IMG/VR virus record: IMGVR_UViG_3300024264_000006
Coordinates: 32,001-96,000 of that record
DNA: 64,000 nt
Source of the DNA: a virus
Direction: 5' to 3' (one strand)
The notes under the pieces: model-generated
Database searches by the model: none
Told to the model about the DNA's origin: nothing
Seen by the model: only the letters and a program-made list of their open reading frames with translations
Program-made: the position numbers and the translations under genes
Shown here: piece after piece, positions 11,075-33,799 of the stretch
Layout: each line of letters starts with the position of its first letter
How positions within the stretch are numbered: the stretch's first letter is position 1

Positions 11075-11355
11075 TTACCAATGTGTTTTATATCACTTTT
11101 TGGAATAACCTGATACGCACCCTTATTGTAGGCTGGCGCAACAGTAAAGTTCTTAGACTCCCGATTCTTGTATGAGGTATCCTGCTCTGGTGAGTAGGGT
11201 GTGATCTCGTGAGACGGGTAATTTGGGGTCTCTCTCCGGAAACTGGGTTCTACCTTCAATTCTTTGAACTCCGGTGTACTCCGCTTCTTCTTAGACCAAG
11301 CGTTGTACTTCTTCTTCCTACCGTTGGGGTAGTGTCTCATAGAACCATGAAGCAT
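11071..11355 (-). CDS. conserved T4-like hypothetical protein
   Basis: C-terminal APAYNKGAYQVI motif. Confidence 0.65.
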   Translation of the reverse strand: MLHGSMRHYPNGRKKKYNAWSKKKRSTPEFKELKVEPSFRRETPNYPSHEITPYSPEQDTSYKNRESKNFTVAPAYNKGAYQVIPKSDIKHIGK

Positions 11356-11606
11356 TAATATAACTCCCAACTCGCCTTTCTTCTACCCTCGTTCTGGGCT
11401 TTGAATTTCGCAAGTTTCTTATTTCTTTTGATTTTACTGTTAAGTTGATTCTTAACTTCGTTAGGTTTAACGTAGTATTGTCTCTTCTTAACTTCCTGTA
11501 CGACACCTGCTTTGTTGCAGGCTCTCTTGAATCTATTCAACATCTTGTTGAAGTCTTCGGTGTACTGGCCTTTATATCCAGTTTTTCTAGGCGTTACTTG
11601 TGGCAT
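11355..11606 (-). CDS. rpsU: ribosomal protein bS21
   Basis: MPQV...EDFNKMLNRFKRACNKAGVVQEVKKRQYYVKP...RR...LY; AGGAGA RBS before ATG 11606. Confidence 0.9.
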   Translation of the reverse strand: MPQVTPRKTGYKGQYTEDFNKMLNRFKRACNKAGVVQEVKKRQYYVKPNEVKNQLNSKIKRNKKLAKFKAQNEGRRKASWELY

Positions 11607-11973
11607 ATTTCTCCTGTGTTGTGAATGAGGCGAACTCATTCGGGTTAATTTTGTCGAATCCACAACCTGCTACGGCATAGAATTCTCCATCTTCGGTCTC
11701 AACAACGTCACCAACCGACATAGAGTACGGTCTCTCGTTGTTTACGAACTTGACTAGGGAGTAGTCCTCCCAGAGGTTCATCAATCTGAAAGACTCCTCC
11801 AGATCGTTTGTGTAGACATTCGCTACATACTTATAGTACTCAGCAGTACCGGATTGATACCCTTTAAAACCTTTATCGGCGTAAGCTGTGGTCTTGGGTG
11901 ATGCAGTCCATCCTTTAGAATTCACGAGGTCACCCTCTTCCGTGGACAGTTCAAATTGATATACTTTTAACAT
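11587..11973 (-). CDS. hypothetical protein (YodL-like SMSVGDVV motif)
   Basis: SMSVGDVV; GAGAGAGGT RBS. Confidence 0.55.
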   Translation of the reverse strand: MLKVYQFELSTEEGDLVNSKGWTASPKTTAYADKGFKGYQSGTAEYYKYVANVYTNDLEESFRLMNLWEDYSLVKFVNNERPYSMSVGDVVETEDGEFYAVAGCGFDKINPNEFASFTTQEKYATSNA

Positions 11974-31360: not shown

Positions 31361-32054
31361 TTGTTACTCCTAACATTTCTTTCGTCATGATGTAGTCACG
31401 TACAAAATCAGACCGTACAATGTCTGCCCACGTGAAGTTCACCGTTGTGAAGTTATTTAGGTGATCTATTACGTTAAGAAATTTCGCAAGACCACTTTTA
31501 TCATTGGACTTGACAAAATCACTCTGGTAATAATCACCACAAAAAATAATCCTACAGTTCTGACCCACTCGTGTAATTATCGAATCCAACTCATGGAATG
31601 TCAAGTTTTGCATTTCGTCTACAACTAACACGCAGTCGGTAAACGTAAGTCCACGTAGAAAAGATGTGGATGAGAATTCAATGAGGTTTTGTTTGGTCAA
31701 CTTATCATACGCTAGCGTATCGTCAAACAGTTCAGAACAGATTGCTCGATAGGGGCCTGTATATGCATCTACTTTCTCTTCGATACTGCCAGGCAGAAAC
31801 CCTATTTCACGGGTAGGTACAATAGAACGAACTACCACCACCCTTTCGATGACGGGGTTACCTTTGTCTAACGCTTGTTCTAACGCCAAGTATAAAGCGG
31901 AGAAGGTTTTACCCGTACCCGCACTTCCAGCCATTACAATATGATTCCCTTCATCCCATGACTTATACACCGTCTCTTGTGCGGCGGTGATCGGTTCGAA
32001 TGTTAGGAGATCATCAATGCGTAGTTTTTGAGGCATTGTTGATTGTGGTCTCAT
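31350..32054 (-). CDS. phoH: PhoH-family ATPase
   Basis: GSAGTGKT, GFLPG, RGLTF, DEMQN, GDYYQSD, DIVRS. Confidence 0.95.
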   Translation of the reverse strand: MRPQSTMPQKLRIDDLLTFEPITAAQETVYKSWDEGNHIVMAGSAGTGKTFSALYLALEQALDKGNPVIERVVVVRSIVPTREIGFLPGSIEEKVDAYTGPYRAICSELFDDTLAYDKLTKQNLIEFSSTSFLRGLTFTDCVLVVDEMQNLTFHELDSIITRVGQNCRIIFCGDYYQSDFVKSNDKSGLAKFLNVIDHLNNFTTVNFTWADIVRSDFVRDYIMTKEMLGVTNDN

Positions 32055-32287
32055 GTGTTTATTGTGTTCCCTCTACCTGAGCCTTTTTTCATGCGGTCAA
32101 GATGGTTTTCCCAGTCTTTACCAGCGACACGCATTGTGGATTTTGTTCCGGATATGGTTGCAGGCGCAGAGAGATGCACCTGTTTTAGATTTGGGTTATC
32201 AGTTTTATACTGATCTAAATCGGAAATCCGGAGAGACACTTCTGTAATCTCTCCGGATTCCTTGTCTTTAAAATTGTAAAATGGCAT
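32051..32287 (-). CDS. FmdB-like small protein
   Basis: MPFYNFKD..SGE...; common upstream neighbour of phoH in T4-like phages. Confidence 0.6.
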   Translation of the reverse strand: MPFYNFKDKESGEITEVSLRISDLDQYKTDNPNLKQVHLSAPATISGTKSTMRVAGKDWENHLDRMKKGSGRGNTINT

Positions 32288-32349
32288 TTATATACTTCAC
32301 TCTTAATCGCAAAATCTCACCTACGACAACCGTGTTGGTTGAAGAGATA

Positions 32350-32363
32350 GGATCACCCCCTTA
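32350..32363 (-). promoter_or_regulatory. 14-nt complement of the 16S rRNA 3' end (extended Shine-Dalgarno)
   Basis: mRNA TAAGGGGGTGATCC versus the perfect complement TAAGGAGGTGATCC (one G.U wobble). Confidence 0.65.
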
Positions 32364-32513
32364 GTTCAAAGTTTGAATAGTCTGGTTAAGAAAGTCTCTC
32401 TTCTCCATGAGTTTATGAGCTTTACTTTCCTTTCCGTTCTTCTTAAGTCTCGTAATGTAATAATTAATTTCACGAGAATCTTTTTTTAACCGTTCTATTT
32501 GGGTTGCTGTCAT
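32361..32513 (-). CDS. small basic helical protein (50 aa, not in ORF track)
   Basis: MTATQIERLKKDSREINYYITRLKKNGKESKAHKLMEKRDFLNQTIQTLN with AAGGAG RBS. Confidence 0.65.
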   Translation of the reverse strand: MTATQIERLKKDSREINYYITRLKKNGKESKAHKLMEKRDFLNQTIQTLN

Positions 32514-32537
32514 CCGCACTCCTTGTTAGTTAATGGA

Positions 32538-32960
32538 TTATTTTTTGATTAAGTTTGGAAATGCCTCCTTTACTAGTTTTTTAGTTAAGCCTTTGATGGG
32601 TGATTTTTTATTCACCATCGCCATTACCAAGAGTGCGTCATCAGCGTGAACACTCTCAAGTAAACCAATGAAAGAATTTTCTCGTTTGTATGGTGGCCAA
32701 TCGTCCGCTGGGCCACCTTTGACAAAGTAGCCGAAATCTCTATGTTTTTTAAGAAGCGTGGAAGGGATTGACTCCGGACGATTCGGGGTGTAGGGTGGTT
32801 TGCCTTCTGGGAGATTGAACTCCAGTGTATCATCAAACATTCCTCTAAGAATATCCCTTAGAGCAGGGATATTATTCTGTTTCAAAATCTCAATACGTTT
32901 TGATCGAGACTTTTCTAATTCGAATTTATCGAAAATTTCATAAACTTGAATGGGTTGCAT
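32538..32960 (-). CDS. conserved T4-like hypothetical protein
   Basis: LPEG.PPY..N...KRE..FI.LLE.VH..DA. Confidence 0.7.
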   Translation of the reverse strand: MQPIQVYEIFDKFELEKSRSKRIEILKQNNIPALRDILRGMFDDTLEFNLPEGKPPYTPNRPESIPSTLLKKHRDFGYFVKGGPADDWPPYKRENSFIGLLESVHADDALLVMAMVNKKSPIKGLTKKLVKEAFPNLIKK

Positions 32961-33722: not shown

Positions 33723-33799
33723 TGGCCCGCTAGAAGAGATTCGAACTCCTGACCCTTGGTTTCGTAGACCAATGCTCTATCCATCTGAGCTACTAGCGG
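33723..33799 (-). tRNA. tRNA-Arg (ACG)
   Basis: Acceptor CCGCTAG/CTAGCGG plus G-CCA; anticodon arm TTGGT-CTACGAA-ACCAA; T-loop TTCGAAT. Confidence 0.95.

Follow-up and report, generated by a model that had tools for sequence, protein, structure and literature searches.

By analyzing a 64,000-nucleotide stretch of the record IMGVR_UViG_3300024264_000006, a 147.6-kb sequence from a marine T4-like phage, we found that the stop codon of a 50-aa ORF is part of a 14-nt complement of the 16S rRNA 3' tail. This complement belongs to a real, strongly conserved and uncatalogued unit which, judging from its sequence, is apparently an undescribed ribosome-docking element. The stretch, hereafter called the window, covers positions 32,001-96,000 of the record, and the features discussed here are listed in Table 1. 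From the observed conservation, anatomy and frame statistics, we infer 30S binding, initiation at an AUC codon and coupling. Our preferred, still tentative reading is that the element would be a dedicated ribosome-loading site on a near-cognate start codon, coupling the next cistron.

Table 1. Features at and around the element, in window coordinates.
Feature	Coordinates	Strand	Remarks
Small ORF, 50 aa, conserved helical-hairpin protein	32364..32513	minus	ATG at 32513; own SD AAGGAG at 32524-32519, 5 nt before the ATG
16S-tail complement UAAGGGGGUGAUCC	32350..32363	minus	GGUGAUC invariant in 49 distinct homologous loci
AUCUC box, conserved	32344..32348	minus	Its AUC (32348-32346) may serve as near-cognate start and occupy the P site
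Mini-hairpin, 5-bp stem, 5-nt loop	32327..32341	minus	Other stems of 4-6 bp, or GC-rich stems of 7-13 bp, in relatives
AUC-frame ORF, 26 codons + TAA	32268..32348	minus	Crosses the hairpin and ends 17 nt within the next gene
Block AAGAGUGAAGUA	32293..32304	minus	5 nt 5' of the next ATG; kept within the sub-clade; -4.7 kcal/mol, no good SD
FmdB-like gene, 78 aa, phrog_385 'transcriptional regulator'	32051..32287	minus	Directly downstream gene

The first three bases of the 14-mer UAAGGGGGUGAUCC are the TAA stop codon (32363-32361) of the 50-aa ORF. As an earlier note on this DNA had described, the 14-mer pairs without interruption with the 16S 3' tail GGAUCACCUCCUUA through 13 Watson-Crick pairs and one G.U, in a duplex predicted at -24.7 kcal/mol; the tail used as pairing reference is of the E. 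coli type and may not be the host's own. Also in line with that note, which had called it longer than the ribosome binding sites (RBSs) of the window, the RBSs of 94 window genes span 4-6 nt with a computed mean of -5.75 kcal/mol, and the 14-mer is an extreme outlier among the 16S complements of the window. The 14-mer pattern has one exact match in the window, where matches with up to three mismatches are no commoner than in shuffled sequences, and a scan of the whole 147.6-kb record returned no second site with more than 11 consecutive 16S pairs. A PeSL-like cassette repeated within the genome is ruled out by this single copy. We obtained no Rfam match to the element at gathering or E-value thresholds, a tRNA being the sole gathering-level match in the window, and a literature search on the 11-mer gave mentions of 16S primers only.

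An ordinary SD-type RBS combines complementarity to the 16S tail, which the 14-mer has along all 14 pairs, with an AUG, GUG or UUG located 5-10 nt downstream and opening a conserved coding gene; no such codon follows the 14-mer. At initiation distance there is an AUC alone, 7 nt past the GGGGG core. Thus the statement in the earlier note that no start codon follows the element holds for AUG, GUG and UUG, but has to be amended for a conserved near-cognate AUC at P-site distance. The nearest downstream ATG (32287) is 62 nt past the 14-mer, close to the 60 nt or so estimated before. We considered whether the two could form a split RBS as in T4 genes 25 and 38, in which a hairpin is found between SD and AUG. 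Like these genes, the element comes from a T4-like phage and is parted from the next AUG by a hairpin. Unlike them, it would still be separated from the ATG by more than 25 nt in the window if the hairpin were removed. We rejected this possibility on the basis of the spacing, as the inner hairpin is preceded by 13 nt and is still 39 nt away from the ATG (26 nt when counted from the outer stem), and because the next genes of most relatives own an SD.

The genes around the element are all on the minus strand, co-oriented with it, and are arranged in the order promoter, 120-aa and 78-aa ORFs, DUF6433 gene, 50-aa ORF, element, FmdB-like gene, phoH and T4-type lysozyme gene. The promoter is sigma-70-like (33634-33606, minus; TTGCCA, 17 nt, TATAAT; 11 of 12 consensus positions) and probably drives an operon that includes the small ORF and the element; a tRNA-Arg(ACG) gene at 33723-33799 (minus) precedes this near-consensus promoter. 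The two ORFs upstream of the DUF6433 gene gave no family match. The phoH of the phage is a distant relative of cyanomyovirus phoH, and the window DNA occurs in seawater metagenomes. The window FmdB-like protein, which has no cysteines, is a zinc-less derivative; a distant relative (L015) begins with a CxxC zinc-ribbon motif. As for the 50-aa ORF, it encodes a genuine protein family, with 560 relatives in IMG/VR and a conserved residue pattern in the alignment of 12 diverse members. Its product is basic and is predicted to fold into a two-helix hairpin (pLDDT 93.6) of Rop-like shape. Searches with this protein gave no family match and no PDB match, the structure search returning generic helical hairpins only, and tblastn against 50,697 phage records gave no match.

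Then, we compared the region downstream of the small ORF across relatives. The same unit was present at the end of the small ORF in 39 of 39 distinct loci among the best 80 relatives and in 49 distinct sequences overall, that is in every close relative examined, keeping in mind that these loci share descent and that counts across relatives are not independent. A lack of conservation among homologs, which according to the earlier note would have refuted its proposal, is contradicted by this result. Searching for the small ORF together with the element and the hairpin, as proposed before, yielded hundreds of phage contigs, and the small ORF was found in no bacterial genome. The unit consists of a purine-rich SD core, GGUGAUC, a 2-6 nt spacer, AUCU(C/A) and a hairpin starting 0-4 nt later. 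The core varies (GGGGG, GGAGG, GGAAGG or GUAGG), and the complement of the 16S tail measures 9-14 nt across close relatives. In the 49 distinct loci, GGUGAUC is invariant and usually followed by C, its sole change being an A to G opposite a 16S U, and all predicted 16S duplexes fall between -18.8 and -24.9 kcal/mol. Most of the sequence variation preserves 16S pairing, including A/G exchanges opposite a 16S U and the GGAAGG form, which still makes 5+9 pairs around one bulged A. At the more distant homolog L015 (44% identity in the alignment of 12 members), the element is absent and a terminator-like hairpin alone is kept.

In all cases the stop codon is in contact with the element, in one of two registers: a UAA or UAG just 5' of it, as in the window, or a UGA inside GGUGAUCC. 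The latter defines an 'RG-stop' sister class, in which the ORF ends with Arg-Gly-stop encoded by AGG GGG UGA. The gene after the hairpin, usually FmdB-like and sometimes another one, starts 9 to about 120 nt past it, and in most relatives has its own AGGA or AGGAG. In loci of the L022 type, a U-rich tail or terminator and a TTGACA/TATAAT-like promoter are even inserted between the element and the next gene. Given the stop contact, the SDs of the next genes and this intervening promoter, comparison of these loci indicates that the element is to be assigned to the small-ORF 3' end rather than to be read as a hairpin-displaced SD of the next gene. The proposal that it is not an ordinary RBS is thereby borne out, in that a conserved 16S complement is tied to the small-ORF 3' end in close relatives. 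In the cultured cyanophages S-H38, S-WAM1 and P-RSM6, which carry the FmdB-like gene, the gaps at this place are tiny, the small ORFs are different ones and the element is absent. Among deposited phage genomes, we found a variant of the unit only in phage C48C1 (OQ984149, 82551-82628), itself metagenome-derived. There, UAGGAGGUGGUC, UAUCUC, a hairpin and UCGUAG lie between a 51-aa ORF and an annotated 'transcriptional regulator', and the AUC frame meets a stop 35 nt before the next ATG.

This conservation bears on two explanations that do not involve the ribosome. According to the first one, the 14-mer would be there by chance or as a relic of a former RBS without present function. The element does occur as a single copy per genome and the window hairpin folds no better than shuffled sequences, but base-level invariance holds down to about 42% protein identity between ORF homologs, including the coding overlap of the 'RG-stop' class. 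We regard this explanation, effectively refuted by conservation, as scarcely credible. According to the second one, the conserved bases would be recognized by a protein, such as the small helical-hairpin protein or the FmdB-like product, or by another RNA, their complementarity to 16S being incidental. The strict link of the element with one small ORF family, the absence of a 16S pairing partner for UAUCUC, and the basic nature and Rop-like shape of the small protein would fit such an operator. However, the element is also found after unrelated genes in phages that lack the small ORF, the tolerated variants mostly keep 16S pairing, and the phage's own record has no partner RNA complementary to the element. 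We therefore see an incidental complementarity as very improbable. We also ruled out a mimic of helix 45 and the anti-SD on the opposite strand, where the core varies (CCCCC, CCUUCC, CCUACU). The U-to-C changes implied on that strand would destroy the mimic, whereas the sense strand can still pair through G.U or around a bulge, which argues that it is the functional strand; the co-orientation of all genes with the element also speaks against the mimic.

The first codon of the AUCU box was AUC in 45 of 47 distinct loci, AUU in one and GUC in one, and was located 7-11 nt past the SD core, which corresponds to P-site distance, in all of them. In the 31 distinct loci in which the FmdB-like gene comes directly next, the AUC frame was open to its ATG or beyond in 27, and this held for the two remaining frames in 8 and 14 loci. 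Within the sub-clade of the window, the distance from AUC to ATG is 55, 58 or 61 nt, with indels that are all multiples of 3, and the AUC frame runs over 22-26 codons without a stop before ending 11-17 nt within the FmdB-like gene. Six divergent variants of the 58-nt form have no stop in the AUC frame over 12 codons and 1-5 stops in each of the other frames. In the window, this frame is the one of the small ORF and starts directly after its TAA, so that no other start codon is available to it. A non-canonical start used right after the element was to speak against the view taken in the earlier note; the AUC, with a frame kept open in the sub-clade, is a candidate for such a start.

The sister class has a different layout, since its site is a start-stop: AUC-UAA, AUC-UAG or AUU-UAG in 19 distinct loci, plus one GUC-UAA. 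This layout fails for the window copy with its 26 codons. The FmdB-like gene has almost no SD in the sub-clade of the window, and has AGGA or AGGAG where the site is a start-stop. In addition, the GC hairpin of the sister class can be extended at its base by a lower stem, made of the CUAA of the site and the UUAG within the UUAGGA of the next gene. Bridging of the AUC frame to the next gene is not universal, as 1-nt indels shift this frame in the GC-hairpin sub-clade and as it stops 9-35 nt before the next ATG in some loci. Also, no purifying selection on the peptide of the AUC frame was detected (pN/pS about 1.1), which indicates that no peptide is conserved there. If this frame is translated, we infer that the act of translation would matter rather than the peptide.

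Under the loading reading, the 9-14 nt complement would bind very tightly a 30S subunit that is either fresh or just off the small ORF, possibly handed over directly from the stop codon overlapped by the element. Docking would bring the conserved AUC, which lies 7-11 nt further on, into the P site, and the exceptional strength of the SD would offset the poor start codon. Occupancy or translation of the AUC would then melt the hairpin located 0-4 nt past the AUCU and pass ribosomes to the next cistron. In the window, translation of the 26-codon ORF (32348-32268) would run through the mini-hairpin to a stop 17 nt inside the SD-poor FmdB-like gene, which could be translated by termination-reinitiation (overlap) coupling. 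In the sister class, a ribosome sitting on AUC-UAA/UAG would cover the CUAA, freeing the UUAG of the UUAGGA RBS of the next gene.

Several observations support this reading. First, 16S complementarity is the property conserved in the 49 loci, with variants that keep pairing. Second, an AUC or AUU is kept 7-11 nt past the core in 46 of 47 distinct loci. Third, the AUC frame is preferentially open, every indel in the sub-clade of the window being a multiple of 3, and in the window it opens right after an in-frame TAA with no alternative start. Fourth, the FmdB-like gene is SD-poor in this sub-clade and has AGGA/AGGAG where the site is a start-stop. Fifth, the position of the hairpin is conserved and its sequence is not. 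Sixth, an unrelated podovirus-like group (L099) displays the same design. Metatranscriptome contigs that bridge the element add a weak argument. Against it, AUC is a very poor initiator in E. coli, the AUC frame shows no conserved peptide, and its bridging to the next gene is not universal. A duplex extending through GAUCC would leave only 1-2 unpaired bases before the AUC, which may be a misfit to P-site geometry. Moreover, coupling cannot be the role in L022-type loci, because a terminator and a sigma-70-like promoter precede the next gene.

Alternatively, along the lines of the earlier note, the element could be a non-initiating tether on which a free or stop-released 30S is parked; it would serve as a standby site or a ribosome sink, or hold the subunit after termination and so control hairpin folding or downstream access. 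That the stop always touches the element in two registers, that the stop and element layout recurs in unrelated contexts including after a mini-ORF, that no canonical start follows and that the element is kept where a promoter separates the next gene are all expected from a tether, which explains the stop link and the L022-type loci equally well. What a tether leaves unexplained is the AUC/AUU fixed at P-site distance, as well as the open AUC frame and the multiple-of-3 indels in the sub-clade of the window, and we consider it a serious but less probable rival of loading.

The stem-loop reported in the earlier note is present in the window, but it is weak. Its inner hairpin (32341-32327, 5 bp) together with the outer AUCUC:GAGAU pairing reaches a z of -1.2 only versus shuffles, and the outer stem is kept in the sub-clade of the window only, where mini-hairpins of 4-6 bp with compensating changes are found. 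Hairpins were analyzed sequence by sequence, since shifts of register hide them from RNAalifold in a MAFFT alignment. For the 35 distinct hairpins of relatives, the median MFE was -16.3 kcal/mol and the median z was -3.3 compared to other segments of the same loci; their position is fixed and their sequence free. In many sister-class hairpins (L191, L209, L210 and others), located about 15-60 nt after the small-ORF stop, GGAUCC is present on both arms; these arms echo the GAUCC of the element, and an alternative pairing of the element with a hairpin arm may be possible.

With such a hairpin starting within the footprint of a ribosome, 0-4 nt past the AUCU box, the element could be a ribosome-controlled terminator, in which a ribosome on the element covers the 5' arm and lets RNA polymerase read through. 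Many relatives indeed have GC-rich stems followed by a short U run, and a few of them (L168, L022) are textbook terminators. But at least 5 U in 8 positions after the hairpin were found in only 6 of 47 tails of relatives, and the window hairpin is not terminator-like, no intrinsic terminator being called at this 5-bp stem. Furthermore, four marine metatranscriptomes hold contigs of the region, of which two bridge the element (31991-32442 and 32190-32671). These contigs are low-depth assemblies with possible DNA carry-over and carry no ends, strand or level. Since they cross the hairpin with no assembly break there, they weakly suggest that it is not a complete transcript end. Finally, in the L099 group, folds with the ribosome footprint masked retain a strong terminator. 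Such an attenuator is thus quite improbable. A model with an antiterminator or a leader peptide is unsupported by the constrained folds of the L099 group, and no alternative (antiterminator) pairing was found in the window.

Another role would be the stabilization of the downstream message. Strong SD-like sequences protecting 5' ends, located a few nt from the end of a stable processed or primary transcript, include the STAB-SD of cry3A and the SP82 polypurine element. Similar SD-like stabilizers are found in the hbs and katG leaders (PMC5737220, PMC2358910). By analogy, a 30S bound to the element after a cut near the stop would shield the FmdB-like/phoH/lysozyme message from 5'-dependent decay. 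Like these stabilizers, the element is a strong SD-like sequence without a canonical start and remote from the next RBS. Unlike them, it goes together with a stop, an AUC and a hairpin, and persists in loci with a promoter downstream. In L022-type loci the element is at a 3' end, with a terminator and a promoter downstream, and stabilization would explain neither the AUC box nor the tight link with the stop codon. We hold this role to be improbable.

Apart from loading at the AUC being tentative, the element appears to be built on known principles, namely SD:anti-SD pairing, near-cognate starts, start-stops and coupling. With canonical SDs and extended ones, as found in S. aureus (PMC13009471) and at rpsU in Flavobacteriales (PMC9976891), it shares the pairing of mRNA to the 16S 3' tail and the 7-11 nt spacing to the P-site codon. 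It differs from them by its 9-14 nt reaching GGAUCA, the part of the tail beside helix 45, by an AUC in place of AUG/GUG/UUG, and by its location on a stop codon and before a hairpin. In E. coli, the start-stop minimal ORFs yecJ and hslR were identified by Ribo-RET, and occupancy rather than the product is thought to be functional (bioRxiv 10.1101/520783). The sister class has the same succession of SD, start and immediate stop; however, its start is AUC or AUU, the site is intercistronic and joined to a hairpin, it recurs in hundreds of phage contigs, and the window copy is a 26-codon ORF. The infC gene starts with AUU and is autoregulated in an IF3-sensitive manner. The element would likewise have an AUH start whose use hinges on IF3 discrimination, but the gene behind it is not a translation factor.

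For translational coupling, a scanning model was reportedly put forward by Adhin and van Duin. Coupling is known to work by termination-reinitiation or by RBS unmasking (PMC6728339, PMC12548453, PMC7538156), and similarly, at the element, the upstream frame ends a few codons from the next start and the hairpin base can mask the next SD; unlike in these systems, the coupling ORF itself would start at a super-SD and AUC lying on the stop of a third ORF. A further parallel is offered by the TURBS of caliciviruses, an 18S-complementary tether for post-termination 40S (PMC10275272). The element too is an rRNA-complementary motif beside a stop and could hold a small subunit after termination, but this is an analogy only, as the TURBS is eukaryotic, lies upstream of a stop/start overlap and pairs with another rRNA region. 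A frameshift site of the prfB type was rejected, since there is no conserved shifty codon and since a variable hairpin, and not a conserved frame, is found downstream.

Very long SD complements are generally held to hinder translation, and AUC starts are regarded as near-silent. The combination of a super-SD with an AUC, kept base for base in hundreds of contigs of uncultured marine phages and next to several kinds of unrelated genes, suggests that selection uses extremely tight 30S docking, which could either drive initiation at a poor codon or hold a ribosome to open an RNA structure. With about 60 nt, the element is portable; it could account for the translation of some SD-poor phage genes, and it would provide a new motif, without Rfam match, for catalogues of phage cis-regulatory RNAs. 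More speculatively, and in our opinion unlikely, this 'super-SD plus AUC' combination would be a parking module of marine phages that reads the initiation state of the host and gates early genes. Its inputs would be free 30S, IF3 discrimination and perhaps bS21 content, with the start-stop form relying on occupancy only. If true, it would be the first conserved natural cis-element with near-full-length pairing to the 16S tail, GGAUCA linker included, and a non-AUG start.

The cooperation with a phage bS21 imagined in the earlier note did not find support. Besides the genome of the window (Pfam match PF01165, E 9e-14, at about 11418-11561, minus, within the ORF 11354-11639), two window-type relatives have a bS21 gene, but none was detected in three sister-class records that bear the element and are 64-85% complete. 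Among phage records, the window bS21 is closest to S21 genes of the proteobacterial type (about 44% identity), and the region upstream of the window gene is without SD.

Similar layouts were found elsewhere. The exact 14-mer GGTGATCCTATCTC has at least 120 matches in IMG/VR. In about half of those listed, the 14-mer has an SD-like prefix and is closely flanked by a stop on its 5' side and a hairpin on its 3' side; many belong to the syntenic family, and others come after unrelated genes, such as those for a head maturation protease, a terminase, a minor head protein, or ORFs without family. The clearest case is the podovirus-like group (L099, with its relatives L087, L130, L038 and L105), in which the layout separates the major head gene from the structural gene that follows (L099:8384-8600). 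A mini-ORF of 6-7 codons with its own strong RBS (GGAGGA, 7 nt, ATG) ends with a UGA stop directly before AAGAGGUGAUCC and UAUCUC. Two hairpins follow. The first is trailed by a UUACCU with which the element's AGGUGA can form pairs, and the second is a strong terminator of 13 bp ending in seven consecutive U. Exact copies of the 17-mer GGAGGTGATCCTATCTC were found at only 17 places in 596 Gb of prokaryote genomes; a few of these copies, in Patescibacteria/CPR and Janthinobacterium contigs, appear to be true elements. Three contigs binned as Saccharibacteria/Patescibacteria MAGs (L287, L293 and L296) carry AAAGGAGGUGAUCC followed by UAUCUC and a hairpin, and may be either phage contigs or a cellular use of the element.
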